From: a virus
Taxonomy: Duplodnaviria; Heunggongvirae; Uroviricota; Caudoviricetes
Reading direction: 5' to 3' (one strand)
DNA length: 64,000 nt
IMG/VR virus record: IMGVR_UViG_3300012347_000377
Location: 1-64,000 of that record
Positions 8,701 to 27,737 of the stretch are shown here, one piece after another (the stretch's first letter is position 1; the number at the start of each line of letters is the position of its first letter). A model generated the notes under the pieces. The model was not told the DNA's origin, made no database searches, and saw only the letters and a program-made list of their open reading frames with translations. The position numbers were made by a program, and so were the translations under genes.

Positions 8701-8701
8701 T

Positions 8702-10650: not shown

Positions 10651-10670
10651 TAATTAAAACACAAAAAAAA

Positions 10671-12545: not shown

Positions 12546-12548
12546 AAT

Positions 12549-13025
12549 ATGGCATTAGTATTAAAGCCAGGTATGGTAGGGACGGGAGCAATCTCGTCCC
12601 CATCTGTATTTTTAGCAGGTTCTATTGAAATGGGAGTTGCTGAAAATTGGCAAGAAAGAATTGAAAGAGAATTTTCAGATGAAGAACTAACATTCTTTAA
12701 TCCTCGCAGAGATGATTGGGATAGTAGTTGGTCACAAACTGGAGAACAATTTAACACACAAGTAAATTGGGAATTAAATGCATTAGATGATTCAGATATT
12801 ATCTTTATGTATTTTTCACCCGAAACTAAATCACCAATTTCTTTATTAGAATTGGGATTATATGCAGATTCACAAAAAATGATTGTAGTTTGTCCAGATG
12901 GATTTTGGAGAAAGGGTAATGTGAGTGTGGTGTGTACAAGAAATAATATACCAATGTTTAATACAATCGAAGAGGGTATATTTGCATTAAGAACATCTGT
13001 TAGAAAAAATCAAAAATTATATTAG
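12549..13025 (+). CDS. nucleoside 2-deoxyribosyltransferase-like Rossmann protein
   Basis: VFLAGS..., ...SLLELGLY... pattern reminiscent of the NDT-like family; weak. Confidence 0.3.
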   Translation: MALVLKPGMVGTGAISSPSVFLAGSIEMGVAENWQERIEREFSDEELTFFNPRRDDWDSSWSQTGEQFNTQVNWELNALDDSDIIFMYFSPETKSPISLLELGLYADSQKMIVVCPDGFWRKGNVSVVCTRNNIPMFNTIEEGIFALRTSVRKNQKLY

Positions 13026-13053
13026 GATATATCAAAAATATTTTGTATATTTG
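13021..13053 (+). promoter_or_regulatory. phage promoter (attagg variant of -33, -7 TATATTTG)
   Basis: attaggatatatcaaaaatattttgtatatttg. Confidence 0.45.
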
Positions 13054-13079
13054 TAATATAAATTAATAAGATATAAAAG

Positions 13080-13526
13080 ATGAATGATAAAATTGTAGGA
13101 TTTACGTGTAGCACATTTGATTTACTTCATACTGGTCATATTTTGATGTTAGAAGAAGCTAAATCTCAATGTGATTATTTAATTTGTGGATTACAGATAG
13201 ACCCAACGGTAGATAGACCTCAAAAGAATTCACCGGTTCAATCGTATTACGAACGTTTTATTCAATTGAGTGCAGTTAAATATGTGGATGCAATTATACC
13301 ATATACGACCGAAGAAGAATTGATGACAATATTACAAACAAACGATATTGATATTAGAATATTGGGTGATGAGTATGAAAGAAAACTATTCACTGGTTCT
13401 AATTTAGATATGGATTATTACTTTAATAAACGAACTCACAATTATAGCACAACCGAATTACGAAAACGAGTTGCATTAAAGGAATCTCAATTAGGAGGAA
13501 GTGAAACTGATAATACTAAACAATAA
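13080..13526 (+). CDS. cytidylyltransferase-like nucleotidyltransferase (HxGH); candidate NMN adenylyltransferase
   Basis: GFTCSTFDLLHTGHILMLEEAK is the (T/H)xGH nucleotidyltransferase signature. Confidence 0.5.
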   Translation: MNDKIVGFTCSTFDLLHTGHILMLEEAKSQCDYLICGLQIDPTVDRPQKNSPVQSYYERFIQLSAVKYVDAIIPYTTEEELMTILQTNDIDIRILGDEYERKLFTGSNLDMDYYFNKRTHNYSTTELRKRVALKESQLGGSETDNTKQ

Positions 13527-13532: not shown

Positions 13533-14672
13533 ATGGAAAACTTAAATTCAGTTTGCTACGTAGCAACGATTAATGAAATCAAACCAATCGAAGGTGCTGA
13601 CAACATCGAACTTGTAATAGCAGGTGGATGGAATGCAATCACAAAGAAAGGTGAATTTAAAGTAGGTGATACAACCATCATCGCAACTACTGATGCAGTT
13701 ATACCAGAATCACTTTCCGAAGAAATGGGAGTTACAAACTATCTTCGTAAAGGTAATAGAGTTAGGACTGTGAAGTTAAGAGGTGTATATTCAGAATGTT
13801 TGATTATACCAAAGCAGTATCTAATGGGTAATGTGACAATGGGTGATTATGATTTGGGTGAAGGTAGTGATTGTATGGAGTTCTTAGGGATTACTAAATT
13901 CGAACCACCAGTTAAGATGGTTCAATTAGCAAGTGGTAAAAAGATTCGTTATCAAGATAATCCAAACTTTCATGTCTATTATAAGTTTCCTAACTTAAAG
14001 AATGTACCTGATATGTTTACTAACAATGATTTAGTAGAAATCACTCGTAAGATACATGGAACTAATGCTCGATATGGTATTGTTAAAAAGAACAAATTAT
14101 CATTATTTGATAAGCTTAAGAAATTCTTTGGATTTGCCGATAAGTGGATTGATTACGAATTCGTAGTTGGTTCTCATAACGTAGAGAAAGGTTCAGACTC
14201 CAATGGGTTCTATGATACTAATGTTTGGTATGAAATTGAAAAGAAATACAACATCAAACAAAAATTATGGGATTACGTTAAAAATGAAAACGTTTATATT
14301 GGTGATGGTATTACCTTATATGGTGAGATTTACGGAGCGGGAATCCAAAAGGGATATGAGTATGGGTTAAAAGATATTGAGTTCGTAGGATTCGATGTAA
14401 AGGAGTGTGGTGAGTATTTAAGTACCTACAATGCTTGGAGGGTAATTAAAAATGAATTAGAATTACCTTATGTTGAAATTTTACACTTCGGTGATTGGTC
14501 ACAAGAAATACAAGATTCTTTTGTATTTAATAACTTTATCGAAGGAACAAAAGTTCCACATGAAGGAATTGTAATCAAATACCACACAGGTGAAAGACCA
14601 AAGATTGCTAAGGTAATCAACCCTGATTATTTAATCTTTGCAGAAAAACACAATGTGGGGGATTCCCATTAA
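13533..14672 (+). CDS. ATP-dependent RNA ligase, Rnl2-like, with extra N-terminal domain
   Basis: Motif I KIHGTN, motif IV EGIVIK, motif V IAKVIN in canonical order. Confidence 0.65.
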   Translation: MENLNSVCYVATINEIKPIEGADNIELVIAGGWNAITKKGEFKVGDTTIIATTDAVIPESLSEEMGVTNYLRKGNRVRTVKLRGVYSECLIIPKQYLMGNVTMGDYDLGEGSDCMEFLGITKFEPPVKMVQLASGKKIRYQDNPNFHVYYKFPNLKNVPDMFTNNDLVEITRKIHGTNARYGIVKKNKLSLFDKLKKFFGFADKWIDYEFVVGSHNVEKGSDSNGFYDTNVWYEIEKKYNIKQKLWDYVKNENVYIGDGITLYGEIYGAGIQKGYEYGLKDIEFVGFDVKECGEYLSTYNAWRVIKNELELPYVEILHFGDWSQEIQDSFVFNNFIEGTKVPHEGIVIKYHTGERPKIAKVINPDYLIFAEKHNVGDSH

Positions 14673-14686
14673 TAATTAAAACAATT

Positions 14687-15094
14687 ATGAAACAGAGAAT
14701 TTATTTAGATGATGTTAGAACTCCCGTTGGAGATGGATGGACAATAGTTAGAAACTATGACCAATTCATATCTACCATTCAATATATTGGATTAGAAAAT
14801 ATTGAACTAATATCATTAGACCACGATTTGGGAGATTCGGCAATGAAAGAATGGCATTATGGTGTGACTAAAAATTATGCTATTAACTATGACAACATTA
14901 CAGAAAAGACTGGAATGGATTGCACCAAATGGTTAGTTAATCAATGGTTAGATGGACAACCGGTAGTGGATGTAGTAGTCCATTCAGCAAACGCAATTGG
15001 TTCTGCTAATATGATGGGGTATATAAACAATTATAGACATTTGAATAGACTACCACAAAATTGTGTAAGAGTTCAAATAGAACATACCGTTTAA
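14687..15094 (+). CDS. hypothetical protein (135 aa)
   Basis: ORF. Confidence 0.45.
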   Translation: MKQRIYLDDVRTPVGDGWTIVRNYDQFISTIQYIGLENIELISLDHDLGDSAMKEWHYGVTKNYAINYDNITEKTGMDCTKWLVNQWLDGQPVVDVVVHSANAIGSANMMGYINNYRHLNRLPQNCVRVQIEHTV

Positions 15095-15102
15095 AAATTA
15101 CG

Positions 15103-15261
15103 ATGATGATGTTTATTACAATGTTAGTTATACTTTTTTTATGGCTTGCATATGCAGGATGGTCTGCACCTCTTATGAGAGAAAACAAAGATGGAAGTTG
15201 GACAACGATTCAACCACAAAAACGATTTAAAGATTTATTTAAAAAATCTAAAAAGAAATAA
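15103..15261 (+). CDS. small membrane protein (52 aa)
   Basis: ORF 15061-15261 trimmed to ATGATGATG start; hydrophobic. Confidence 0.3.
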   Translation: MMMFITMLVILFLWLAYAGWSAPLMRENKDGSWTTIQPQKRFKDLFKKSKKK

Positions 15262-15539
15262 TGAATAATCAATATAAAATATATAGACAATCTTATTTGG
15301 ATGAATATGGTGTAGAGAGTTCAATATCATATTATATCAGAGAACGTAAAAACTTTTTAGGTATTTCATATTGGAAATCTATAAAACATGAGGTATGTGG
15401 ATATGGTGATTGCTATAATGTGAGAACCCAATTTAAATCAGTAGAAGAAGCCGAAACCTTTGTTAAGGAAAAACTTTGCACAAAGATTGGTAAGGATAAG
15501 TGGGTAGAGAAAGAAGTAAAACAATTAAGTTGTAATTAA
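15261..15539 (+). CDS. hypothetical protein (92 aa)
   Basis: ORF. Confidence 0.45.
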   Translation: MNNQYKIYRQSYLDEYGVESSISYYIRERKNFLGISYWKSIKHEVCGYGDCYNVRTQFKSVEEAETFVKEKLCTKIGKDKWVEKEVKQLSCN

Positions 15540-15540
15540 A

Positions 15541-16122
15541 ATGAAAGTAATATTTTTAGACCACGATGGTGTTATATGTTTAGCAACTGAATGGGGTGGT
15601 AGATTTAAGAAACAAACTGAAGTGGGTAGAAAATTATCCCAATCAGTTACGTCTTTACCCACCGATGCACGTTTTGATAATTTCAATAAAAAAGCAATTG
15701 TAATATTAAATGAAATATTAGAAGAAACTAACGCTGAGATTGTTGTATCATCTGATTGGAAAAGATGGGCAAGTGTTGAGGAGATGGGTGAATATTATGA
15801 ATCACAAGGAATCAAAAAGAAACCAATAGCATTTACCAAAAATTTAAGTGAGTGTGATGTACCTGAAAATTTCGTATGGTCACGTAAATGGGATTTGGAA
15901 CAAACTCGCTCGTTAGAAATTAATCAATACCTTAGAGATAATCCAAGTATTACTCATTGGGTTGCAGTAGATGATTTGAATATGGGAATACCTCAAACAC
16001 ATGAATCGTGGGGTGATATGGAAATGGATTGGGGATTAACTAACTTTGTTCTAACACCGAGAAGTAGAGAAGGAATTAAACAAAGTGGTATTAAAGAAAA
16101 AATATTAGAATTTCTAAAATAA
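15541..16122 (+). CDS. HAD-superfamily phosphatase
   Basis: Motif I FLDHDGVI at N-terminus, VAVDD near C-terminus. Confidence 0.5.
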   Translation: MKVIFLDHDGVICLATEWGGRFKKQTEVGRKLSQSVTSLPTDARFDNFNKKAIVILNEILEETNAEIVVSSDWKRWASVEEMGEYYESQGIKKKPIAFTKNLSECDVPENFVWSRKWDLEQTRSLEINQYLRDNPSITHWVAVDDLNMGIPQTHESWGDMEMDWGLTNFVLTPRSREGIKQSGIKEKILEFLK

Positions 16123-16126
16123 TATT

Positions 16127-16897
16127 ATGCCGGAATTAGCAGAACTACGTCTTACCGCAGATTATATCAATCAAACTGCAAAGGGTAAAATTTTTCATAG
16201 TGTAAGAAAGAATCCAACTCACAAATGTCCTGAAATATCGGAAGAGTTGGATTTTCCTTTTACCATTAAAGCAGAAAGTAAAGGTAAAGAATTGATGCTT
16301 GAAATTACGCCACAACTAATGGATGGTGAAAAAAAATACTTAATGATGACAATGGGTATGAGTGGTCATTTCAAATGGTTAGTAGAAGGAACTACTCATA
16401 AACATGCACATTTAATATTTAATTCTGATGGAGGTTCTTTGGCTTTTGTAGATGTTAGAAGATTTGGTAAATGGAAATGGGGAAGTTGGGGTAATGATAG
16501 AGGACCAGACCCTACCACCGATTTTCAAAACTTTATTCGTAATATTAAAAATAACCTACATAAGAACGATTTTAATAAACCAATATGTGAAGTTCTGATG
16601 AATCAAAAATACTTCAATGGTATTGGTAATTATTTGAGAGCAGAAATATTATATAGAGTTAATGTAAATCCATTTATTCCAGCAAGAGAAGCATTAACAT
16701 CTCATTCTGAAATTTATGAATTATGTAGATGGGCACCATTACAAGCTTATAAATTAGGGGGTGGTGTAGTTGAATCATATAGACAAATGTTGAATAGTTG
16801 GGAAGAATTCATTCTATGTTATAATCGACCAAATATGAGTAAAGTGAAAGATAAAAATGGAAGAACATTTTGGTATGATAAAAAATGGGATATTTAA
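16127..16897 (+). CDS. nei: Fpg/Nei-family DNA glycosylase (endonuclease VIII-like)
   Basis: N-terminal MPELAEL (catalytic Pro2/Glu3); H2TH motif NGIGNYLRAEILYRV. Confidence 0.75.
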   Translation: MPELAELRLTADYINQTAKGKIFHSVRKNPTHKCPEISEELDFPFTIKAESKGKELMLEITPQLMDGEKKYLMMTMGMSGHFKWLVEGTTHKHAHLIFNSDGGSLAFVDVRRFGKWKWGSWGNDRGPDPTTDFQNFIRNIKNNLHKNDFNKPICEVLMNQKYFNGIGNYLRAEILYRVNVNPFIPAREALTSHSEIYELCRWAPLQAYKLGGGVVESYRQMLNSWEEFILCYNRPNMSKVKDKNGRTFWYDKKWDI

Positions 16898-16910
16898 TAA
16901 AAAAGGAATT

Positions 16911-17471
16911 ATGATAAAATTAAAAGATTTAATAACCGAAAAGAAAACTGGTTATGATTACGGATGTGTAATGTTATATTTTACACCAAACGAAGATGTA
17001 GTTAAATTTCAAAATCAAATATCACCATCTGATTTGTATATTGCAGAAGATAATGGTGGATATGGAATTGAAGATGAAGCACATTGCACCTTATTGTATG
17101 GATTACATGAAGAAGTTAAGTTAGAAACGATTTCACAAATATTGAATAGAATTCAATTTGGAGAATGTAAAATTCATAACCCATCTCTTTTTGAAAACGA
17201 AAAGTTTGATGTTCTTAAATTTGATGTAGGCTATCCATCCAAAGGTGGTGCGTTTTTACATAAAGCAAATACGGAATTGGTAAAACTACCAAACACTCAA
17301 ACATATCCAGATTACCACCCACATATGACAGTTGCATATTTAAAACCGGGAATGGGTAAAAAGTATGTTGATATGTTAAATGGTAAAGTAAATACGTTTA
17401 TACTTAATCCTACACACGCAGTGTATTCACAGCCGGATGGTAGTAAAACTGAAATCAAAATAAATAAGTAA
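16911..17471 (+). CDS. 2H phosphoesterase (LigT/CPDase-like)
   Basis: Two H-x-T-x motifs: HCTLL and HMTVA. Confidence 0.5.
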   Translation: MIKLKDLITEKKTGYDYGCVMLYFTPNEDVVKFQNQISPSDLYIAEDNGGYGIEDEAHCTLLYGLHEEVKLETISQILNRIQFGECKIHNPSLFENEKFDVLKFDVGYPSKGGAFLHKANTELVKLPNTQTYPDYHPHMTVAYLKPGMGKKYVDMLNGKVNTFILNPTHAVYSQPDGSKTEIKINK

Positions 17472-17743: not shown

Positions 17744-18079
17744 ATGGTCACTATATCTGATAAAGCATTAAATCACGTTCTTTCACTAATGAAAGATAGT
17801 GGATTATCAACTGAAACACACAACCTAAGAGTTGGTGTTAAAGGTGGAGGGTGTTCCGGTTTATCCTATACAATGGATTTTGATGAAGTAATTGATACTA
17901 CAACCGATGATGTGGTTGAAGTTAGTAATGGATTGAAGATTGTAATAGATAGAAAATCCCTTTTATACTTAATTGGAACTGAATTGAATTATTCAGATGG
18001 ACTGAATGGTAAGGGATTTGAATGGATTAACCCCAATGCATCACGAACTTGTGGATGTGGGGAATCCTTTTCTCTTTAA
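17744..18079 (+). CDS. iscA: IscA/HesB-type iron-sulfur cluster insertion protein
   Basis: GGGCSG and C-terminal CGCGESF signature. Confidence 0.8.
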   Translation: MVTISDKALNHVLSLMKDSGLSTETHNLRVGVKGGGCSGLSYTMDFDEVIDTTTDDVVEVSNGLKIVIDRKSLLYLIGTELNYSDGLNGKGFEWINPNASRTCGCGESFSL

Positions 18080-18419
18080 TCTAACTTCAAAGGTTCGGTG
18101 TGTTGACGATGTCCTTTACCGGAAACCTTACTATAAGTTTTAGATAATCCAGCACCTAAAGTTGTGCATACTAAAAATAATCCTATTAATAAATTTATCA
18201 TAATAATTGTGTTTTTTTAATATAAATATCAACAAGCAACACTAAAAACTAACAAAAACGTAATATTGTTAGTAAGTTGATGAAGATACTTTATATAATA
18301 CAATTTTATCATATTGGAATAGTTATACAAATAATTCACTATAAGTAAATTTATTTGTTTTTATTGAATTATTATATTTATAGTGGTAGAATTAACTAAA
18401 ACAAAAAAAGGATTATATT

Positions 18420-18629
18420 ATGGCACAAGGACAATATTGTATCGTGGATTTAACGATTGATGGTAATGTAGCATTAGAAGGATTGACTGGATTAACATCT
18501 GAAGCTGCTGAAGCTTGGTTAGCAGAAAATCAAGTAGAAGTACCTGAGTTTGATGTAGAAGCAGGTAAATCAACTTCAAAATTCGCTATGGCACCGGATA
18601 ACTGGGTAACTGATGAAGATTTAGCTTAA
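18420..18629 (+). CDS. hypothetical acidic protein (69 aa)
   Basis: ORF followed by terminator. Confidence 0.4.
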   Translation: MAQGQYCIVDLTIDGNVALEGLTGLTSEAAEAWLAENQVEVPEFDVEAGKSTSKFAMAPDNWVTDEDLA

Positions 18630-18655
18630 TTGTTAATATATCTTACACACATCAT

Positions 18656-18688
18656 AACCCATTGAATTTCAATGGGTTATTTTTTTAT
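18656..18688 (+). terminator. rho-independent terminator (AACCCATTGAA...TTCAATGGGTT family)
   Basis: Perfect hairpin plus T-run; near-identical hairpins at 33476 and 40875. Confidence 0.65.
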
Positions 18689-18696
18689 CTAAAATA

Positions 18697-18728
18697 TTTG
18701 GAAATATCAATTTTTATTCGTATCTTTG
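18697..18728 (+). promoter_or_regulatory. phage promoter (-33 TTTG / -7 TATCTTTG)
   Basis: atttggaaatatcaatttttattcgtatctttg. Confidence 0.55.
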
Positions 18729-18747
18729 ACTTATAATAATAAAAGAA

Positions 18748-18963
18748 ATGGAAGATAATACTAAAAAATACAATCCGTATCATAAGGAAGCAATTAGACT
18801 CTCTGAAGAATCTAAACTAACATTAACAATAGATGCTTCTATTATAACGAAGTATTCAAACGATATGGAATTGGGTGGTATTATTAGAGAAATGTATATC
18901 AAAAAATGTAAATCAGCAGATGAACAAATTGACCATATACAAACTTTAATGAAAAATATTTAA
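18748..18963 (+). CDS. hypothetical protein (71 aa)
   Basis: ORF. Confidence 0.4.
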   Translation: MEDNTKKYNPYHKEAIRLSEESKLTLTIDASIITKYSNDMELGGIIREMYIKKCKSADEQIDHIQTLMKNI

Positions 18964-19029
18964 TTATTTTTTACGTTTCATATATTTTTATATATGTATA
19001 TAAACAAAAAGAAAGTTCTTTAACATAAT

Positions 19030-19404
19030 GGGGATGCCCGGTATTGACAGATATGAAGTGTTGATATAATTGCAAGCAGGATTAGATGGAAATCCTTAAT
19101 CACCTATCGAACAATAAACGCAGAAGAAAAATCTTCATTCACCTTTGCAGATGCTATGGCATTTGTAGGTGCTGATTTAGCTGTAGCAGCATAATCATCC
19201 TCGCACACATCGTGAGCTAAAAAAGAATGTGAACTCAGGTGGAAAAGTGATTGAACCCGAAATCGAATCACTCATTGTTTATCGGTTGCCGATGGTGAAG
19301 AACCAACCGAATATTTTGTTAGTTAAGAAAAACTAACTAAGCTTGTGAATGAGGTTTATTAAACCATATTTTGGACGAGGGTTCGACTCCCTCCATCTCC
19401 ACCA
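19030..19404 (+). ncRNA. ssrA: tmRNA (SsrA)-like RNA, phage-encoded
   Basis: 5' GGGGATG pairs with 3' CATCTCC-ACCA (G3:U70); 3' end GGACGAGGGTTCGACTCCCTC...CCACCA is tmRNA-like; internal frame aataaacGCAGAAGAA...GCTGTAGCAGCATAA ends in ...ADLAVAA stop. Confidence 0.6.
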
Positions 19405-19423
19405 AAAAAAAATTACAAATATA

Positions 19424-19455
19424 TTTGGAATTGTAAAAATAATTTCGTATCTTTG
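19424..19455 (+). promoter_or_regulatory. phage promoter
   Basis: atttggaattgtaaaaataatttcgtatctttg. Confidence 0.55.
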
Positions 19456-19570
19456 TATTGTTATTAAAATAAAGGTTGAAGCCAATAGTAATAAAACCGA
19501 CTATGTGACCCCGTAAGGAAGAAAGCCGGATACCATTATTTTAATAATAAAAAAAATAAATGAAAAAAGA

Positions 19571-19602
19571 TTTGGAAATGTGAAAATATTTTCGTATCTT
19601 TA
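19571..19602 (+). promoter_or_regulatory. phage promoter
   Basis: tttggaaatgtgaaaatattttcgtatcttta. Confidence 0.5.
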
Positions 19603-19786
19603 CAAAGTAATCAGAATTCGTAAAAACGTACCTGAAGTAAGAGTGACGAAGTTTACTATACCAAATGGTTGATTCTGATTACAAAATCGTTCTTTGAGAA
19701 ATATAATAATTGTGGGAGAGTAGACTAATTGTAAATAAGACGCCCGTAAAATGTACAACATTTCAATTATTATTAAACATTATATC

Positions 19787-19857
19787 GCGAGGGGGAGGTA
19801 AGGTATTTCATTGGTCTCATAAGCCAACCTAAGTGGGTTCGATTCCCACCCTACGCA
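19787..19857 (+). tRNA. tRNA-like gene, anticodon CAT, degenerate D-arm
   Basis: Acceptor GCGAGGG/CCTACGC (1 mismatch), anticodon arm TTGGT-CTCATAA-GCCAA, T-arm GTGGG-TTCGATT-CCCAC. Confidence 0.3.
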
Positions 19858-19940
19858 ACTAAGAGTAAGTAAGAGAACCGGTTATCTAAACCTTTGAGTG
19901 AAGAGCCAAACGTCATACTTACTTACTCAAAAAAAAAACT

Positions 19941-19972
19941 TTAAAAAAGATTTGGAATTGTGAAATTAATTT
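19941..19972 (+). promoter_or_regulatory. phage promoter
   Basis: tttggaattgtgaaattaatttcgtatcttta. Confidence 0.5.
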
Positions 19973-20057
19973 CGTATCTTTACAAAGTAATAAGAAACTA
20001 ATCAACCAAACAACACAAAATTAAAAAGTATTGTTCAATTTAAAAAAAAAATAAATT

Positions 20058-20270
20058 ATGGTAAAGTTTCATAAAGTTCTTTTAATTGCTGGATGTGTGA
20101 CATCATTATTAAGTGGTGTGATAAGTGTAGTTCAAAATAAGTTTGATACATATGCATTTATATCAGCATTGTTATTCTTTAATTTATATCTTAGTTTAAT
20201 TACTAATACGAAATTAGAAAATGCAATTAATGATCACGTTAAATCAGTTAGAAAAATAATTAAAAAATAA
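20058..20270 (+). CDS. small membrane protein (70 aa)
   Basis: Two hydrophobic helices. Confidence 0.4.
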   Translation: MVKFHKVLLIAGCVTSLLSGVISVVQNKFDTYAFISALLFFNLYLSLITNTKLENAINDHVKSVRKIIKK

Positions 20271-20281
20271 TTGTAAAATTA

Positions 20282-20313
20282 TTTGGAAATACGAAAAAAG
20301 TTTCGTATCTTTG
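20282..20313 (+). promoter_or_regulatory. phage promoter
   Basis: tttggaaatacgaaaaaagtttcgtatctttg. Confidence 0.5.
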
Positions 20314-20384
20314 TAAAGTTGGTTCTGAACTCATAGGCAATGAAAGATACTCGGTATCAGAAACAAAAAAAAGTTTAAAAAATA

Positions 20385-20416
20385 TTTGGAATTGTAAAAT
20401 TAATTTCGTATCTTTG
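20385..20416 (+). promoter_or_regulatory. phage promoter driving ORF-free region
   Basis: tttggaattgtaaaattaatttcgtatctttg. Confidence 0.55.
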
Positions 20417-20424
20417 ATAAACAA

Positions 20425-21550
20425 AACGTTCTTTAAATTATTGAAAACATTGCACATAGTATTCTCGTAATACATAGTGCATATCCGCCGCATATGGTGG
20501 TTAAATAAACTTGGAAACAAGGATAAAGTGAATACATTGGTTAATGTGTTTGCGGTTTCAAACCGAAAGGAATGGAACTCGAGTATGCAAGTGGAATATC
20601 ATTAGACCTGATTAGTGAGGGTAACTCCGTAGTGAAATGGTTTGATGACTGGGCTATAGTAGAAGTTCAGTTGAAGTGGGAACACTAATAAGAATAATCC
20701 ATAGAGTTAATGCAAGAAGTGAGAACTTAATCTCTTCTCATCATTGCGTGATTCAATATTAAAGGTGACTTAAAACCGAAAGGTATGATAAAGTACGAGT
20801 GGTGTCGTTATTATCCTTACCTACCTCTCACCAAAGAGTGGGTATTGAAGTAATCTTAAAATATGGCGTTAGAGATAACGCATCGAGTAGTATAGTATTC
20901 TGTTCTTCAAAATGGAACGGAGCTAGTGGTAATCCACTACTTGAATTCTTCTACAAACCAAAACTCAATTTGCTATTTGAATGCAAACTCAAAAACAAAT
21001 AAGAGAAAGAGGTTACCAGTTACAATCGAAAGGTGTGTACTTAGTAGGGAGATGTTCCCTGCCACAAACACTCTCAAGGTGAATGTGATTCTTTCAAAAA
21101 ACTTCTAGCATTGCGAGATGTTAATCGGGTCGGCAGATTCGAAGAGGCGGAGTAAAAAGAGAGTAGGTTGTGACTTAAAGATTGGTAAATCTATAATTAC
21201 CCACATTGAATTGGTACTTCTCAAAAGGAAGTGGAAATTAAGGCAACCCATAACCCTTATAAAGCTGGTTCACAATATGGAGTATTCTCATCCTTATACA
21301 AGATGTAATAGTGTAATGGTAGCACGTTCCAATGGTGACTTTGGAAAGCAAGGTTCGATTCCTTAAACATCTCTTCGTAGTGGTTTACGGCAGATAGGTT
21401 AGGTGTATCTCTCTAACAACTGAAAGTCCACTTAAATAAAAATGACAAATAGTATGAAGATATGGTTTTCAGTAGGGGATTTTCGCCTTAAACAATCTCA
21501 ACCAATACGAATTAGTGTTGATGGTAAACAATGGATGTAGCTAGTCCTTT
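20425..21550 (+). ncRNA. candidate large structured non-coding RNA (about 1.1 kb, ORF-free)
   Basis: Bounded by consensus promoter and terminator; no ORF >82 aa in any frame; visibly G+C-richer than coding DNA; recurring ccgaaagg/tcgaaagg GNRA-like hairpins (20562, 20778, 21037). Confidence 0.35.
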
Positions 21551-21586
21551 GGAAAGAACCACCCTACGAAATCTTTCCTTTTTTAT
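21551..21586 (+). terminator. rho-independent terminator
   Basis: GGAAAG-16nt-CTTTCC followed by TTTTTT. Confidence 0.5.
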
Positions 21587-21661
21587 AACAATGGTTGTAG
21601 GTAGGTTCGATTCCTCCGTTATATCTAAATTAATTAAACACAAACAAAAAAAACAATTATT

Positions 21662-21841
21662 ATGAAAAAAGTATTAGCAATTTTCGCAGTGGCATCTTTA
21701 GTAGTATTAGCATCTTGCGGTGGTAAAGCAACAACTGAAGCAACAACAGATTCAACGGCAGTAGCAACAGATTCAGTATCGGTAGATTCAACCGCAACAC
21801 CAGCAGTAGATTCAACAGCAACAACAGCGGAAGTAAAATAA
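21662..21841 (+). CDS. small lipoprotein (59 aa) with DSTA repeats
   Basis: MKKVLAIFAVASLVVLASCGG lipobox; not in supplied track (<60 aa). Confidence 0.45.
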   Translation: MKKVLAIFAVASLVVLASCGGKATTEATTDSTAVATDSVSVDSTATPAVDSTATTAEVK

Positions 21842-21887
21842 TTTCGTAAAAAATAATTAAAAAATAAATTTTATATATTTATAAGCA

Positions 21888-22049
21888 ATGAAAACTCTAA
21901 CATTACATACAATCAACCAACTACCAACACAGAAATGTGCGTGGACAGGGAATCGTATGTTTAGTATGATAGAACTACCGCAAGCAAAATCGATTATTGG
22001 CAATGTGGATTATAATAGTTCTTCGTTAGGGGAGGCATCTGGATGGTAA
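21888..22049 (+). CDS. hypothetical small protein (53 aa)
   Basis: ORF followed immediately by terminator. Confidence 0.3.
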   Translation: MKTLTLHTINQLPTQKCAWTGNRMFSMIELPQAKSIIGNVDYNSSSLGEASGW

Positions 22050-22080
22050 TATAATAAAATTTATATTTATATTTTGGAAA

Positions 22081-22115
22081 CCCTAACTGATATTTAGTTA
22101 GGGTTTTTTGTTTTT
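22081..22115 (+). terminator. rho-independent terminator
   Basis: CCCTAACT-gatattt-AGTTAGGG plus TTTTTTGTTTTT. Confidence 0.6.
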
Positions 22116-22187
22116 GGGGATATAGCTCAATGGTAGAGCAACGGACTGTTAATCCGTAGGTTGTAGGTTCGAATCCTTCTATCCCCG
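22116..22187 (+). tRNA. tRNA-Asn (GTT)
   Basis: GGGGATA/TATCCCC acceptor, loop CTGTTAA, T-loop TTCGAAT. Confidence 0.85.
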
Positions 22188-22275
22188 CAATAAGAGTTCA
22201 TTGACATATTGGATATTAACTAATGGGCTTTAGTGGGAAGCCGCAAGAACGATAGATGTTGTTCATCCACTAAAT

Positions 22276-22347
22276 GCGAATATCGTATAATGGTTATTAC
22301 TCCTTCCTTCCAAGTAGGAGATGTAGGTTCGATTCCTACTATTCGCT
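22276..22347 (+). tRNA. tRNA-Gly (TCC)
   Basis: GCGAATA/TATTCGC acceptor, loop CTTCCAA, GTAGG-TTCGATT-CCTAC. Confidence 0.75.
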
Positions 22348-22451
22348 CAATAAACACATTGAAGGTTCGACCCTCTACCAAATATGATATATTCATAAAT
22401 GGATTCATGAGGGAGCTACCTATTGATAAGTGACCGCACAAGCGGTAAAAT

Positions 22452-22522
22452 TGCCTGATGGTGTAGCGGTAGCACAACTGTTTTTGGTGCAGTTAGGGTA
22501 GGTTCGAATCCTGCTCGGGTAA
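22452..22522 (+). tRNA. tRNA-Gln (TTG)
   Basis: TGCCTGA/TCGGGTA acceptor (2 G-U), anticodon arm ACTGT-TTTTGGT-GCAGT, T-loop TTCGAAT. Confidence 0.55.
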
Positions 22523-22528
22523 CAATTT

Positions 22529-22602
22529 AGAAGATTAGCTCAGTTGGTTAGAGCATTTGGTTTACATCCAAAGGGTCATAGGTTCGAATCCTATATCTTC
22601 TA
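22529..22602 (+). tRNA. tRNA-Val (TAC)
   Basis: AGAAGAT/ATCTTCT acceptor, GCTC-AGTTGGTTA-GAGC D-arm, loop TTTACAT. Confidence 0.85.
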
Positions 22603-22610
22603 CAATAATT

Positions 22611-22694
22611 GGGAGTGTTGAGCAACGGTTGCTTAGCGGACTGTAAATCCGTGGTCTTTCGGCATTGGGGGTTCGAATCCCTCCACTCCCACCA
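22611..22694 (+). tRNA. tRNA-Tyr (GTA), CCA encoded
   Basis: GGGAGTG/CACTCCC, loop CTGTAAA, long variable arm, ends ACCA. Confidence 0.85.
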
Positions 22695-22697
22695 ATC

Positions 22698-22770
22698 GGA
22701 GCTTTGGTATAGCTGGTGCGTACGCTAGTCTGAAGAACTAGAGGACAAGGTTCGATTCCTTGAGGCTCCA
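22698..22770 (+). tRNA. tRNA-Phe (GAA)
   Basis: GGAGCTT/AGGCTCC, loop CTGAAGA, CAAGG-TTCGATT-CCTTG. Confidence 0.8.
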
Positions 22771-22832
22771 CAATAAAGTGATATTTGAACAATAAATTGA
22801 TTATCTTTATTAGACAGAAATAAGTTTATTAT

Positions 22833-22906
22833 GACTCCGTAGCTCAGTTGGTTAGAGCACCTCACTTTTAATGAGGGAGTCAATGGTTCGAGTCCATTCG
22901 GGGTCA
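22833..22906 (+). tRNA. tRNA-Lys (TTT)
   Basis: GACTCCG/CGGGGTC, loop CTTTTAA, T-loop TTCGAGT. Confidence 0.85.
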
Positions 22907-22962
22907 CAATAGTAGTTTTGAGGTTGGCGAATTCTACTTTAAAAAAATAATCCATCCACCAT

Positions 22963-23035
22963 AGGGTAGTTGACTAATGGTTAAGTCACTTGCTTTGGGA
23001 GCAAGACGATGGAGGTTCGAGTCCTCTCTACCCTA
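22963..23035 (+). tRNA. tRNA-Pro (TGG)
   Basis: AGGGTAG/CTACCCT, arm CTTGC-TTTGGGA-GCAAG (G37). Confidence 0.8.
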
Positions 23036-23041
23036 CAACAC

Positions 23042-23115
23042 TGGTAATTAGCTCATTTGGTTAGAGCATCTCGCTGATACCGAGAAGGTGGCAGGTTCGA
23101 ATCCCGCATTACCAA
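23042..23115 (+). tRNA. tRNA-Ile (GAT)
   Basis: TGGTAAT/ATTACCA, loop CTGATAC. Confidence 0.8.
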
Positions 23116-23126
23116 CTATAAAATAC

Positions 23127-23197
23127 ACGGGTATGGTGCAATGGTAGCATACGGCTCTCCAAAAGCTTTGATGGAAGTTCGAATCTTTCTATCCGTG
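23127..23197 (+). tRNA. tRNA-Trp (CCA)
   Basis: ACGGGTA/TATCCGT, loop CTCCAAA, GGAAG-TTCGAAT-CTTTC; anticodon stem has one mismatch. Confidence 0.55.
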
Positions 23198-23258
23198 CTA
23201 AATGTAAAATTATGAAACAATTATTTGACAAACATTAGGTAACAAAACCTAATGTATA

Positions 23259-23462
23259 ATGAAAGAAGAAAGAGTAAAAAGAATGAGAATGGAATGGAAC
23301 TATTGTTTCATTTGTTCTAAAAGATGTGGTAGTTGGTATTATGATTGTGCACCTTCAAAGATTTGGGGTAGACATGGAAATGGTAAACCAATTTATTCAC
23401 ATAAGTTCAGAGAGTATAAAAGTTGGAAACACAACAGAAAGACACAATGGAAGATAATGTAA
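23259..23462 (+). CDS. small Cys/Trp-rich protein (67 aa)
   Basis: ORF between tRNA blocks. Confidence 0.35.
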   Translation: MKEERVKRMRMEWNYCFICSKRCGSWYYDCAPSKIWGRHGNGKPIYSHKFREYKSWKHNRKTQWKIM

Positions 23463-23689
23463 TAAATCGGTTAGTTCCGAGATTGAAAAAAATTGGTATT
23501 GAAGTGGAATTAGCTGGAAACTATCCTTGGATATATCTTGAAAAAGTAAATGGAAATAGGATAAAGAGAGAGGATTTCTTTAGAGGGAATCATGGATTCA
23601 CCATTGCTTTCTTACCAATCAGAAATGATCAAGTTATGGAATTGACTGATATTGGTAAAGTATTTGAAATGATACGAAAGTATAAATAA
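23423..23689 (+). CDS. hypothetical protein (88 aa; start may be internal ATG at 23447)
   Basis: ORF. Confidence 0.35.
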   Translation: METQQKDTMEDNVINRLVPRLKKIGIEVELAGNYPWIYLEKVNGNRIKREDFFRGNHGFTIAFLPIRNDQVMELTDIGKVFEMIRKYK

Positions 23690-23692
23690 AAT

Positions 23693-23764
23693 AGTTCCGT
23701 AGTTTAACGGATAGAACAATTGGCTACGAACCATTAAATGGGAGTTCGATTCTCTCCGGAACTA
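23693..23764 (+). tRNA. tRNA-Arg (ACG)
   Basis: AGTTCCG/CGGAACT, loop CTACGAA, GGGAG-TTCGATT-CTCTC. Confidence 0.65.
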
Positions 23765-23828
23765 CAAATGATATGGTACCTGAAACGTTAAATGGAGGGG
23801 GGTTCGCCTGAAATGCCATATCATTAAA

Positions 23829-23901
23829 TGTCAGGTTGACCGAGTTGGTTAGGTGGAGGTCTGCAAAACCTTTTACATTGGTTCGAATCCAATACTTGAC
23901 T
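23829..23901 (+). tRNA. tRNA-Cys (GCA)
   Basis: GTCAGGT/ACTTGAC, arm GAGGT-CTGCAAA-ACCTT, ATTGG-TTCGAAT-CCAAT. Confidence 0.65.
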
Positions 23902-23960
23902 CGATAAAGGATACTGGTCGTATCGCCTGACGAGGAGAGTGTGGTTCGATTCCACAAAAC

Positions 23961-24030
23961 TGCGTGACTTAGTGGAAAAGAACTTTCTCTCATAAGGAAG
24001 GTCAATTGAGTTCGAACCTCAAACACGCAA
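23961..24030 (+). tRNA. tRNA-like, anticodon CAT (Met/Ile2-type loop), weak D-arm
   Basis: TGCGTGA/ACACGCA (1 mismatch), TTTCT-CTCATAA-GGAAG, TTGAG-TTCGAAC-CTCAA. Confidence 0.3.
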
Positions 24031-24096
24031 CGATGAATAATATATTATACAAAAGCAGTATATTTAGGGGTAAATGAATAATATATTATACAACAT

Positions 24097-24182
24097 AGAG
24101 AGTTACCCAAGTCGGTGAAGGGGCCTGTTTGCTAAACAGGTAGGATGTTAAAGTCGCAAGGGTTCGAGCCCCTTACTCTCTA
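24097..24182 (+). tRNA. tRNA-Ser (GCT)
   Basis: AGAGAGT/ACTCTCT, CCTGT-TTGCTAA-ACAGG, long variable arm. Confidence 0.85.
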
Positions 24183-24199
24183 CGGAAAAATAATTAATT

Positions 24200-24274
24200 G
24201 CTCGTATGGCGGAATTGGAATACGCAACGGCCTTAGAACCCGTACAATTGAAAGTTCGAATCTTTCTATGAGCA
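24200..24274 (+). tRNA. tRNA with UAG anticodon (Leu-decoding) but short variable arm
   Basis: GCTCGTA/TATGAGC, loop CTTAGAA, GAAAG-TTCGAAT-CTTTC; class-I architecture is unusual for Leu. Confidence 0.45.
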
Positions 24275-24297
24275 CAAACACTTAAACAACGATAATT

Positions 24298-24756
24298 ATG
24301 GTTTACAGAAAACTGGGAGACAGAACCGAAGTTGATTTAGTAGAATACATTAAAACGTATTTAACTAATCACGATGATGTTGATATTCTAATTGGGTGTG
24401 ATTCACAAAATCACAGATTCCAAACAACCTATGCCATCGTAGTTGCGTTGTATCATAGGGGTAAAGGTGGTCATGTCTTATATAACAAATGGACAGTTCC
24501 AAGAGAAAGAGTAAGACAAACTCGTTTATTAAATGAAGTTTGGTATTCAGTTGAAACTGCTGAATTACTAAGAGAATCAGGAATACCAAAACCAAAATGG
24601 ATTGATGTGGATTTAAATCCAGATCCACGTTTCAAATCTAACGAAGTGTTTAGACAAGCAGTTGGTATGGTTGAAGGAATGGGTTATCAGGTTAGATATA
24701 AATCATTAGGTCCGATTGCAACATATTGTGCAGACCACTTAGTAAAAAATAATTAA
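24298..24756 (+). CDS. DUF458/YkuK-like RNase H-fold protein
   Basis: DILIGCDSQ...YAIVVALYHRGKGG resembles YkuK family core (viGTDSq). Confidence 0.4.
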   Translation: MVYRKLGDRTEVDLVEYIKTYLTNHDDVDILIGCDSQNHRFQTTYAIVVALYHRGKGGHVLYNKWTVPRERVRQTRLLNEVWYSVETAELLRESGIPKPKWIDVDLNPDPRFKSNEVFRQAVGMVEGMGYQVRYKSLGPIATYCADHLVKNN

Positions 24757-24763
24757 AAAAACA

Positions 24764-24795
24764 TTTGGATATATAAAATAATTTTCGTATCTTTG
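24764..24795 (+). promoter_or_regulatory. phage promoter
   Basis: tttggatatataaaataattttcgtatctttg. Confidence 0.55.
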
Positions 24796-24810
24796 TAATG
24801 TATTAAAAAA

Positions 24811-24929
24811 TAAAGAGGTAGTGAAGCTGTAATGATGAGCTTTGGGGTAAAGGTTGGAAAAAGGGTTAATAGTATGACTTAAAGCCTACACTCATCATCA
24901 GTAACCCTGAAAGACCCGAAACCTCTTTA
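24811..24929 (+). ncRNA. structured RNA element (nested perfect helices) in 5' leader of tRNA-Met
   Basis: Outer 9-bp helix TAAAGAGGT/ACCTCTTTA; inner CTG-ta-ATGATGAG/CTCATCAT-CAG helix. Confidence 0.35.
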
Positions 24930-24933
24930 ATTT

Positions 24934-25010
24934 GGACTTGTAGCTCAGTTGGTTAGAGCAACTGACTCATAATCAGTAGGTAATAGGTTCGATCCCTATC
25001 TGGTCCACCA
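24934..25010 (+). tRNA. tRNA-Met (CAT), CCA encoded
   Basis: GGACTTG/CTGGTCC (one U-U), GCTC-AGTTGGTTA-GAGC, ACTGA-CTCATAA-TCAGT, ends ACCA. Confidence 0.75.
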
Positions 25011-25021
25011 AATAAAAAAGT

Positions 25022-25264
25022 ATGATTCCAAAAAGTGAAATGTTAGAAGGTTGGTATAATGGATTTAGTAGAAACAACCATGTAGCATATTGGGATGGTG
25101 ATCAATTCCAATACATCAGATATTCATTCGGTTTCTATTTGGATACGATTGAACATTTTGAAGATGTTAAAGAAAGTGGGTTTGATGGATTTGTTCCAGT
25201 TGAAAGAATTGAACGAATTCCAAATGATACTCAATGGAAAATTAAAGACGAAATTGGGTATTAA
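25022..25264 (+). CDS. hypothetical protein (80 aa)
   Basis: ORF. Confidence 0.4.
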   Translation: MIPKSEMLEGWYNGFSRNNHVAYWDGDQFQYIRYSFGFYLDTIEHFEDVKESGFDGFVPVERIERIPNDTQWKIKDEIGY

Positions 25265-25281
25265 AAAAAAGTAAAAAAAGA

Positions 25282-25313
25282 TTAGGAAATGTAAAATATT
25301 TTTCGTATCTTTA
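25282..25313 (+). promoter_or_regulatory. phage promoter (attagg variant)
   Basis: attaggaaatgtaaaatatttttcgtatcttta. Confidence 0.45.
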
Positions 25314-25349
25314 TAATGTTCTTTGAAACGATGGTTAGTAAAGTAATAT

Positions 25350-25424
25350 GGTGGTTGTAGCTCAACTGGTTAGAGCATCCGATTGTGATTCGGAAGGTTA
25401 TGGGTTCGAAACCCATCATTCACC
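25350..25424 (+). tRNA. tRNA-His (GTG) with encoded G-1
   Basis: G-1 plus GTGGTTG/CATTCAC, C73, loop TTGTGAT. Confidence 0.7.
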
Positions 25425-25500
25425 CAAGGAGTTCCCAATCTCAAGTGCTGGTTAGTTGAAACACGCTGATCGAAGAGCCCATCAAAATTGGTGGAATAAT

Positions 25501-25627
25501 AGTCTTGTGGCGAAATGGTAAACGCAAATGTCACTCGGAGAAGAAGGAACTAAGCCAACATCTCCTTGCAAGTGATAGGGTATTCTAAAGAGTAAATCCC
25601 GTACAGGTTCGAATCCTGTCATGACTA
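25501..25627 (+). tRNA. tRNA-like gene with roughly 55-nt insertion (paralogue of 726-838)
   Basis: AGTCTTG/CATGACT acceptor, D-arm GGCGAAATGGTAAACGC, ACAGG-TTCGAAT-CCTGT; internal hairpins CACTCGGAGA...TCTCCTTGCAAGTG and AGGG...CCC. Confidence 0.4.
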
Positions 25628-25819
25628 CAATGTATCAAATGTGCAGTGAAAATAAATGTAGGCATACATATATGAGGTGGGTTCGACTCCCGTATAATAA
25701 TTCCAACTTAGGGGGGAAGCCAAGTAACTGAAAACACATTATAGCCGATTTGGGTTGTGCACCTCGTCCGAGAAACCCTAATAGTTCCTAATAGGTCGGT
25801 ATGGAACTGATACATAATT

Positions 25820-25892
25820 GCTTCCATAGCTCAACTGGTAGAGCCCTCGATTTGTAATCGAGAGGTTGTTGGTTCGATTCCGACTGGAAGCT
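25820..25892 (+). tRNA. tRNA-Thr (TGT)
   Basis: GCTTCCA/TGGAAGC, CTCGA-TTTGTAA-TCGAG. Confidence 0.8.
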
Positions 25893-26268
25893 CCGATTGA
25901 TGTTTCGTTTGATGGTATGTTTTTAAGTTGCCAAAGTGCCGAAAGGATTACTTGATAAGTAAAAAGGATAAACCATCGTAATTGGCTCTATAATTGTTGA
26001 GGTCGCACCAAAGACAATGAGTGGGTGAATGATGATTAAATGTAGGTGACACTCCTTAATACTAGGATTGGAGAGAAGAGTTGGTGCATTTAGTAAGTAG
26101 TTCATAAGATGGGTTCGATTCCCATTAGAGTCTCAATGATTACTGAAATTGAATGATACGAGCCCCGAAAGTTCGAAAAGAGTCAGGCAGTAATCATAGA
26201 GTGGATTCATCAGTTGATGAAAACCAATCGGGGGTTGTCCCACTAGAATGGAAACATCCCCTGCATTT

Positions 26269-26342
26269 GGGACGTTAGTAGAGATGGTTACAATGTCGCC
26301 CTGTCACGGCGAAGGTCACGGGTTCGAGTCCCGTACGTCCCG
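26269..26342 (+). tRNA. tRNA-Asp (GTC)
   Basis: GGGACGT/ACGTCCC, TCGCC-CTGTCAC-GGCGA, ACGGG-TTCGAGT-CCCGT. Confidence 0.8.
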
Positions 26343-26465
26343 CAAATCCCGTTGATTACCTAATCTCAACATAAGGAATCACGTATAGGGAGTTGAGCAG
26401 ATTGAGAAGCTGTTTTGGCGGTAACGCTGAGAATATCTTGACACTTTGGAAAGACAAAGATTTTT

Positions 26466-26537
26466 GGCCCTATAATTAAACGGATATAATGCTTCCCTTC
26501 TAAGGAAGACTTGGGAGTTCGATTCTCTCTGGGGCTA
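26466..26537 (+). tRNA. tRNA-Arg (TCT)
   Basis: GGCCCTA/TGGGGCT, CTTCC-CTTCTAA-GGAAG. Confidence 0.7.
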
Positions 26538-26584
26538 CATAAAAATTAAAACGTAAACCATAAAATAAACCAAAACAAAAAATT

Positions 26585-27013: not shown

Positions 27014-27032
27014 AATAAATTTCGTATCTTTG
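27001..27032 (+). promoter_or_regulatory. phage promoter overlapping end of upstream gene
   Basis: tttggaattgtaaaataaatttcgtatctttg. Confidence 0.5.
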
Positions 27033-27094
27033 TATATATCATACACAATTGATTGATTTTCTAACATATCTTATATTTATATTAAAGAGTTGAT

Positions 27095-27535: not shown

Positions 27536-27536
27536 T

Positions 27537-27622
27537 GCCTCGGTGGAGAAATTGGTAGACTCGCAGCACTTAAAATGCTGTCCGCCGTAAGGAGGGTGCC
27601 GGTTCGACTCCGGCCCGAGGTA
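27537..27622 (+). tRNA. tRNA-Leu (TAA)
   Basis: GCCTCGG/CCGAGGT, CAGCA-CTTAAAA-TGCTG, long variable arm, GCCGG-TTCGACT-CCGGC. Confidence 0.8.
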
Positions 27623-27737
27623 CAATGTAATGATTCGAAAGAATAGCGGAACAGATGCTAAGAATGAAATGGAAACGTTTGAAACTCGTATAAAGGAGTG
27701 AATTCGAAACAAACCGCACAGACATTACATTATTTTT

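Follow-up and report, generated by a model that had tools for sequence, protein, structure and literature searches.

Does the 375-nt element at positions 19030-19404 of a large Caudoviricetes genome specify a working transfer-messenger RNA (tmRNA), and, if so, why would a phage carry it? The DNA in question, hereafter the window, is the 64,000-nt stretch formed by positions 1 to 64,000 of IMG/VR record IMGVR_UViG_3300012347_000377. An earlier note, made from the letters alone, had proposed a phage-encoded, ssrA-like RNA at this site and had named ARAGORN and the Rfam tmRNA covariance model as checks. Both recovered the gene. ARAGORN called a one-piece tmRNA, with CCA encoded, at exactly 19030..19404 on the + strand and read from it the tag AEEKSSFTFADAMAFVGADLAVAA*, with the coding part at positions 91-165 of the gene. 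Rfam RF00023 matched the same interval over the full length of the model (1-374/374) with 102.2 bits (E=8e-39), against a gathering score of 47 bits. Together with the comparative data described below, these results lead us to conclude, with high though not complete confidence, that the element is a functional, phage-encoded, standard one-piece tmRNA (SsrA).

The ends of the gene are as the earlier note had read them. GGGGAUG at 19030-19036 pairs with CAUCUCC at 19394-19400 to form a 7-bp acceptor stem, the third pair of which is the G3:U70 alanine identity pair (G3 at 19032); the discriminator A and CCA follow at 19401-19404, and after CCA comes an A-run. The T arm lies at 19377-19393 (stem GAGGG/CCCUC, loop UUCGACU) and is aligned to the Rfam model with high posterior. 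The in-frame tag that the earlier note had listed (GCA GAA ... GCU GUA GCA GCA UAA) occupies 19120-19194, with AAUAAAC directly before it. All of these parts are on the + strand, and adding 19029 to the tmRNA numbering used below gives window coordinates. The RF00023 alignment is confident in the tRNA-like domain (TLD), helix 2, the resume region and the ACUAAGC motif. Two other layouts do not describe the gene: it is not of the two-piece, permuted type, as ARAGORN found it unpermuted and the standard RF00023 was the best Rfam family, and it is not a TLD-only decoy of the DS6A type, as a 24-codon tag frame and pseudoknots are present.

Because the middle of the gene aligned poorly to RF00023, we turned to related sequences to examine the pseudoknot body. 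Exact-pattern scans of IMG/VR with both gene ends yielded three close relatives (L005, L007 and L013), which share the tRNA-array neighborhood of the window; L005 is on a 245-kb contig. Degenerate back-translation of the tag core (DAMAFVGAD) identified 59 viral contigs in IMG/VR, and a tag-blind IMG/VR scan with 3′ helix-2 and T-arm features found, among the matches listed, further members with variant tag cores. The resulting family has at least 74 loci, all on IMG/VR viral contigs, the longest of which is 245 kb, and these loci yield at least 62 unique tmRNAs, 368-433 nt in length. All 12 relatives tested passed the Rfam threshold, with 84-116 bits, and CCA is encoded in only 27 of the 62 unique members. 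The window and L007 are syntenic over ∼11 kb at 78-86% DNA identity, a region that covers the RNA ligase, the tmRNA, the GOLLD RNA and tRNAs; across the family, the copies occupy several different neighborhoods. Against deposited phages, megablast of 18000-31000 returned short tRNA matches only, and blastn of the tmRNA returned T-arm matches of 33-54 nt only. The tmRNA belongs to a sizeable metagenome-only phage lineage.

Comparison within this lineage revealed strong conservation of the helical frame. In 57 of 57 distinct relatives, all seven pairs of the acceptor stem (1-7/365-371) are formed and the G3:U pair is invariant, while pairs 5-7 occur as three to five pair types. The T stem (348-352/360-364) likewise retains all five pairs in 57/57, with up to four pair types. 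Helix 2a, formed by 19048-19055 and 19365-19373 (19-26/336-344), covaries, with four to six pair types per position; its register for the subclade of the window was set by hand (AGAUAUG/CAUAUUU vs AGGUACG/CGUAUUU). The minimum free energy fold (z=-2.8) instead placed a local hairpin at 12-38, and this hairpin was rejected because covariation supports helix 2a. Helix 2d closes the body that holds the pseudoknots and the tag, with UGCAAGC at 19071-19077 pairing with GCUUGUG at 19341-19347 (42-48/312-318); it has seven of seven pairs in 57/57 relatives, with compensatory changes at three. Helices 2a and 2d together supply the long helix 2 of a tmRNA, the middle of which is not reliably alignable across subclades.

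Within this frame, the first pseudoknot (PK1, 19078-19108) stands just upstream of the resume codon and was recovered by a brute-force H-type search. Its stem S1 has 6 bp (AGGAUU/AAUCCU, 19078-19083/19091-19096; 49-54/62-67) and its stem S2 has 5 bp (GAUGG/CUAUC, 19085-19089/19104-19108; 56-60/75-79). In a comparison of 27 regions, equivalents built from unrelated sequences were found in all PK1 types shown, and within the type of the window an A-U pair is replaced by C-G. Per-sequence shuffle tests of PK1 were weak, with 0-10 of 100 shuffles reaching the window-type score. The stop codon of the tag lies in the 3′ strand of helix 5 (19174-19196; outer GAUU/AAUC, inner GCUG-UAG-CAGC; 145-148/164-167 and 151-154/158-161). 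In 34 distinct sequences, six of ten tested positions of this helix are paired in every one and three more in 27-33, while position 150/162 is an internal mismatch (paired in 1/34). At the pair 19182-19188 (153-159), 13 distinct sequences have U-A and 19 have A-U, a switch made through synonymous Ala codons.

Downstream of helix 5, PK2 (19200-19231) combines S1 CUCGC/GUGAG (19200-19204/19212-19216; 171-175/183-187), which has compensatory changes at four of six pairs, with S2 CACAU/AUGUG (19206-19210/19227-19231; 177-181/198-202). S2 is fully paired in 30/30 unique sequences (permuted partners averaged 11.1 and reached 19 at most) and occurs in four variants (CACAU/AUGUG, UCACU/AGUGA, CUCAU/AUGAG and UUCAU/AUGAA). 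The PK3 position (19247-19271) is taken by a hairpin, GUGAUU/AAUCAC, with a conserved 13-nt loop, GAACCCGAAAUCG; its stem (218-223/237-242) covaries between GUGAUU/AAUCAC and CCAAUU/AAUUGG among 13 relatives. Alignment of relatives next indicates an H-type pseudoknot at 19273-19309 (244-280), with a weak S1 (CAUU/GGUG) and S2 CGGUUG/CAACCG. Analogous pseudoknots in relatives covary (GAUAA/UUAUC vs GACGA/UCGUC), and a real pseudoknot at this position is plausible. Just before the 3′ strand of helix 2d is a last hairpin at 19318-19337, GUUAGU/ACUAAC with loop UAAGAAAA, the stem of which (289-294/303-308) has the compensatory variants GUCAG/CUGAC, GUUUG/CAAAC and GUAAG/CUUAC. Different pseudoknot modules surround the same tag in different subclades. 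The predicted layout of the window copy follows the canonical plan of one-piece tmRNAs, PK3 being represented by a hairpin.

The tag frame itself opens with the resume codon GCA at 19120-19122, continues for 24 codons (AEEKSSFTFADAMAFVGADLAVAA) and ends at UAA, 19192-19194. The resume context AAUAAAC|GCA matches the Rfam consensus at high posterior, and the frame has no start codon or ribosome-binding site; its first codon falls where the alignment has the resume codon of tmRNA. In the larger sample of relatives, the ratio of nonsynonymous to synonymous change (pN/pS) was 0.30 in frame, compared to 2.85 and 2.39 off frame, and most of the variation was in the third position of codons (summed entropy 14.0 vs 3.3 and 4.8). 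This sample is biased, as the retrieval pattern had fixed codons 11-19, and the codon test was therefore redone on a tag-independent sample. Among the members listed there, pN/pS was 0.40 in frame vs 1.53 and 2.33 off frame, and two-step synonymous Leu changes (UUA -> CUU) were present.

These data bear on a different explanation of the conservation, in which the stretch is kept as RNA, for its structure or as a binding site, or encodes a free-standing small peptide instead of a trans-translation tag. The tag region is indeed the most conserved part of the RNA at the nucleotide level, and a hairpin, AUGC-UAUG-GCAU, can be drawn in the tag core of the window copy. However, that hairpin is lost in the DLMAF and DVMSF variants, which nevertheless keep the peptide pattern D-[ALV]-M-[AS]-F; the concentration of variation at third positions and the off-frame pN/pS values above 1 are not those of a conserved RNA element, and the lack of a start codon or ribosome-binding site in a frame that opens at the resume position does not fit a free peptide. 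We consider this explanation very improbable. The in-frame pN/pS, the synonymous Leu changes and the loss of the hairpin instead argue that the frame is translated and that the peptide sequence is the conserved item. Thus, the pseudoknot and tag-frame architecture, the absence of which the earlier note had said would count against its proposal, is present: PK1 and PK2 covary, and the tag codons, by these measures, are under purifying selection at the amino-acid level. Judged by the same comparisons, selection has preserved the tmRNA elements in a lineage that numbers at least 62 distinct copies in phages.

The peptide is unusual. Tags in the family are 23-26 amino acids (aa) long, comprise 32 distinct peptides, are acidic (net charge -3 to -7) and aromatic, and follow the consensus xxE[L/K/M]S[T/S][M/F/W]TF[E/D]D[A/V/L]M[A/S]F[V/I/M]GAD-YA[V/L]AA. 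The Glu, the Ser and the final A-x-x-A are invariant across 32 of 32 tags and are not imposed by the definition of the family. In the tmRNA database, tags of 10 aa are the most frequent (PMC11915505); the native Bacteroides tag, GETNYALAA, has 9 aa, and for phage tags outside the family, taken from the same IMG/VR sample, the median among the matches listed is 13 aa. At least seven long tags of 19-26 aa, for example GNTSIWDVINGFVGAPATEVEYAVAA and AEKSDSYVDENGFLVFADEELKLAA, occur outside the family (L125, L091, L097, L123, L154, L166 and L178), and long tags may be recurrent in phage tmRNAs. The earlier note had asked whether the tmRNA is host-like or divergent. The tag is divergent: it has 24 aa, compared to the 9 of the Bacteroides tag, and a scan of 185,579 cellular species genomes with its exact core matched no tmRNA; the four cellular hits obtained were rejected as chance matches inside protein genes of 68-71% GC content. 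In addition, the consensus tag had no match at E<=10 by tblastn against 50,697 deposited phage records, and a full-text literature search with the tag strings found no paper. Two further ideas about the tag were discarded: an amphipathic helix or strand, as the hydrophobic moment is not above that of shuffles, and mimicry of a protein C terminus, as the motif occurs only in tmRNAs within the window and 729 kb of family loci.

Ribosome release is independent of tag sequence, and yet the 24-residue tag is conserved across phage copies with diverged RNA scaffolds and swapped pseudoknot modules, which argues that tagging itself is seen by selection. The comparison thus suggests that the identity of the tag is selected, and not ribosome release alone; the ∼17 conserved residues ahead of the degron in particular indicate that tag identity would matter to the phage beyond ribosome release. 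One tentative extension, which we regard as possible but hold as the less probable outcome, is that the long acidic-aromatic tag is a phage-specific address label, whose ∼17 upstream residues are recognized by a partner devoted to it, for instance an adaptor, a protease or some phage factor. If so, proteins cut short in the course of infection would meet a fate other than that of proteins carrying the 9-10-aa tag of the host, for example faster or preferential degradation that recycles amino acids, or handling that triggers no host stress or defense signal. Phages would then reprogram the output of trans-translation and not merely its capacity.

Could the gene instead be a passenger, picked up by the phage or mis-assembled and without a role in infection, whether it was a host ssrA or the ssrA end of an island that had integrated at the tmRNA gene of the host? 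tmRNA genes are frequent integration sites, and ssrA fragments are found in prophages (PMC9004378). The gene in the window, however, is complete and internal to a one-strand phage array. All window genes are on the + strand with ∼31% GC, and phage genes and phage promoters stand on both sides of the tmRNA, not a prophage/host junction. Pfam searches of the window ORFs (open reading frames) in 79-59286 found no integrase family. At least 74 copies are present on viral contigs in several different neighborhoods, the four cellular matches to the tag core are chance matches, and covariation and pN/pS point to continued selection within phages. Passenger status therefore appears highly unlikely, and the claim that the tmRNA is phage-encoded is upheld by the PHROG and Pfam content of the window, its one-strand gene organization, the IMG/VR synteny and the nearest isolate homologs, which are in phages.

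The earlier note had placed the gene between two phage promoters. The motif TTTG-N19-21-TAnnTTTG, which we take to be the Bacteroidota housekeeping promoter consensus, occurs 16 times in the window, compared to 2.7 expected; none of 100 shuffles reached 16, and 14 of the occurrences are on the + strand. Both flanking sites are real occurrences of this enriched and strand-biased motif. The upstream one, TTTG-N20-TATCTTTG at 18697-18728 (+), is preceded by a terminator-like hairpin at 18654-18680 and is followed by a 71-codon ORF at 18748-18963 (+), which has no family match and is kept in the same linkage in L007. Because this ORF intervenes, the upstream site is not a dedicated tmRNA promoter, and in that respect the proposal needs amendment; it is probably the promoter of an ORF-tmRNA unit. 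The next site, at 19424-19455 (+), begins 20 nt after the tmRNA 3′ end and marks the end of the unit; no terminator was found between the two. In many relatives, a TAnnTTTG box lies 21-28 nt upstream and a hairpin with a T-run directly follows the tmRNA, and from this arrangement their tmRNAs look like independent transcription units.

A conserved motif, GTTCTTTAA, is located at 19015-19023 (+), ending 6 nt before the mature 5′ end. In many relatives it immediately precedes the tmRNA, irrespective of what stands further upstream, and another copy lies 12 nt past the promoter that precedes GOLLD. We infer that it is a leader or processing element. Beyond the tmRNA, in 19456-19786 (+), the promoter-like sites at 19424-19455 and 19590-19602 are each followed by ∼100-180 nt without an ORF before tRNA-Met, and 19607-19683 can form a perfect 11-bp stem (GUAAUCAGAAU/AUUCUGAUUAC); these stretches may be small phage RNAs.

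Pfam searches of the ORFs in 79-59286 found no SmpB, Clp or Lon family, and tblastn with a PDB-verified SmpB query found no SmpB in the whole 64-kb window and 729 kb of family loci. The tmRNA must therefore use the SmpB of the host. Dependence on a host factor could also mean that the RNA is a decoy, which mainly soaks up host SmpB, EF-Tu or alanyl-tRNA synthetase and blocks host trans-translation without productive tagging. The failure to find SmpB in the window or family loci would fit such competition, and the TLD-only RNA of the mycobacteriophage DS6A inhibits tmRNA in E. coli (PMC4131195, PMC11915505). For a decoy, however, a TLD would suffice, and yet the resume context, a selected 24-codon frame, the stop codon in helix 5 and both PK1 and PK2 are maintained. 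We thus judge a decoy role unlikely, although somewhat less so than the other two explanations weighed above.

As a functional tmRNA, the RNA would be made during infection on a transcript that starts at the phage promoter 18697-18728 and includes the small ORF ahead of the gene; a degenerate box closer to the tmRNA might serve instead. Its 5′ end would be cut by host RNase P after the conserved GTTCTTTAAnAUAAU leader, and it would be charged by host alanyl-tRNA synthetase through G3:U70. With host SmpB and EF-Tu it would enter the empty A sites of stalled ribosomes, where translation would resume at GCA (19120) and add Ala plus 24 residues ending in LAVAA. The ribosome would be released, and the truncated protein would be marked for host C-terminal-degron proteases (ClpXP-type). 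The benefit would be that ribosomes are kept available as nonstop and no-go complexes accumulate in infection, possibly from host mRNA decay or from host RNA-targeting defenses. The adjacent RNA ligase and RNA-repair genes and the full tRNA set would serve the same problem.

Several points weigh against this interpretation. The RF00023 alignment has low posterior in the central part of the RNA (overall accuracy 0.51). The PK3 position holds a hairpin only, and a pseudoknot partner for its loop was looked for and not found; the pseudoknot at 244-280 is without variation inside the subtype of the window and is the least secure element. Part of the tag conservation is circular, as the family is partly defined by the tag, and the tag-blind pattern was itself derived from the family; family counts from that scan are lower bounds. 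Unlike many relatives, the window copy lacks both a terminator and, within 90 nt, a consensus promoter box. Finally, the fit with host SmpB is assumed, expression, processing, charging and tagging are all deduced from sequence, and the benefit to the phage is a conjecture.

The surroundings of the tmRNA are rich in RNA-related functions. Just upstream is an RNA-repair cluster at 13533-17471 (+), with an RNA ligase (13533-14672; PHA02142 OB fold plus RNA_ligase), a cyclic-phosphate-processing cREC_REC domain, a HAD_SAK_2 "Swiss Army Knife RNA repair" domain and a Fpg/Nei glycosylase. The exact sequence of the ligase had no record when looked up. The ORF at 16857-17471 (+) has two HxT motifs and by eye has the look of a 2H phosphoesterase. 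Downstream is a GOLLD RNA at 20883-21294 (+; RF02032, 260.5 bits) within a conserved block at 20253-21586, and a GOLLD RNA lies at most a few kb from the tmRNA in 10 of 12 family loci. Its upstream signals, a consensus promoter at 20385-20416 and GTTCTTTAA at 20428, suggest a GOLLD transcript of ∼850 nt. Six nt after the GOLLD 3′ end is an odd tRNA-like gene, at 21301-21373, that ARAGORN reports as "???" with a 4-base anticodon (Rfam tRNA, 30.3 bits). ARAGORN found 25 tRNAs at 19787-30272 (+), covering all 20 amino acids and interspersed with small ORFs and repeated TTTCGTATCTTTG promoter motifs. Two over-long Rfam tRNA matches without an ARAGORN call, at 25501-25627 (127 nt, 38.2 bits) and 727-839 (113 nt, 37.3 bits), both +, may be tRNAs with an intron or insertion.

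Further from the tmRNA, a nicotinamide adenine dinucleotide (NAD)-salvage set at 7843-13526 (+) includes genes for a phosphoribosyl pyrophosphate (PRPP)-synthetase-like protein (7843-8700), NAMPT (9172-10650), a nucleoside deoxyribosyltransferase-like protein (12549-13025) and a cytidylyltransferase/NMNAT-like protein (13080-13526). This set presumably resembles the phage NAD-reconstitution pathways that counter NAD-depleting defenses. Auxiliary genes unusual for a phage encode a tryptophan-halogenase-like flavoprotein, a B12-binding radical SAM protein and an Hsp20 small heat-shock protein (listed in that order at 47112-48353, 31643-33472 and 45699-46088, +). The PhoH protein is 61% identical to that of the Flavobacterium phage "immuto," and the helicase is closest to those of Cellulophaga and Bacteroides phages. 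The enriched two-box promoters and these nearest phage homologs make a Bacteroidota host, Flavobacteriia-like, likely.

What, then, does this locus add? A phage-encoded tmRNA is an ordinary, already known kind of element. The tmRNA of the window is new within that kind because, although phage tmRNAs are documented, the deposited Bacteroidota-phage ones are permuted and have unrelated 13-17-aa tags. The possible novelty may lie in a lineage-wide conserved long tag, the core of which is absent from the cellular tmRNAs scanned. Phage tmRNAs are routinely annotated and have no demonstrated function, and the lineage offers a concrete and testable handle on why phages carry them. A tmRNA beside RNA-repair enzymes, a 20-amino-acid tRNA set, NAD-salvage genes and GOLLD fits the current view of large-phage islands, according to which they keep translation running against RNA-targeting host defenses.

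Set beside bacterial one-piece tmRNAs (RF00023, such as E. coli SsrA), the RNA has the same Ala-type tRNA-like domain with G3:U70 and ACCA, helix 2 and PK1, a resume codon without a start signal, a hydrophobic-Ala-Ala tag end, a stop codon in helix 5 and then pseudoknots or hairpins. It differs from them in being phage-encoded, in its 24-aa tag, in the plain hairpin at the PK3 position and in that the window and family loci yielded no cognate smpB. tmRNAs are known from the mycobacteriophage Bxz1 group and Bacillus phage G (PMC4131195) and from huge phages, some of which also carry SmpB (PMC7162821), and are present in ∼2.3% of phage genomes (PMC9004378); they also occur in Streptomyces phages, among them Tomas (tag DNSNVAFALAA). 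Like the gene in the window, these are complete genes in large lytic phages, often with many tRNAs, and maintenance of translation is the usual proposal for them. Sequence similarity to them is limited to the T arm, and their tags, unlike the one described here, are of ordinary length and host-class-like.

Two-piece tmRNAs are found in Pelagibacter/OM43 phages (PMC9004378). The tmRNAs of the crAss-like phages cr50_1, cr114_1 and cr10_1 and of Chryseobacterium phage MA9V-3 (L186-L189) are of the circularly permuted two-piece type (ARAGORN tmRNA*), with tags GNNFVTDYTAIGA, GNFYVTDYTRIAA, GNNFVTDYTQLAVA and GNVIDINKYVAKLEVAA. These resemble the tmRNA of the window in belonging to Bacteroidota phages and in having tags, such as GNNFVTDYTAIGA and GNVIDINKYVAKLEVAA, that are unlike Bacteroides GETNYALAA. 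In contrast to them, the gene in the window is unpermuted, and their 13-17-aa tags are unrelated to its own. In tag length, which is in the mid-20s, there is a likeness to the Mollicutes, whose tmRNA tags of ∼27 aa are degraded by Lon, with residues well upstream of the C terminus mattering for recognition by the protease. The Mollicutes tags are unrelated in sequence and belong to another host group, whereas the lineage described here keeps the canonical ...YA(V/L)AA ending of the ClpX type.

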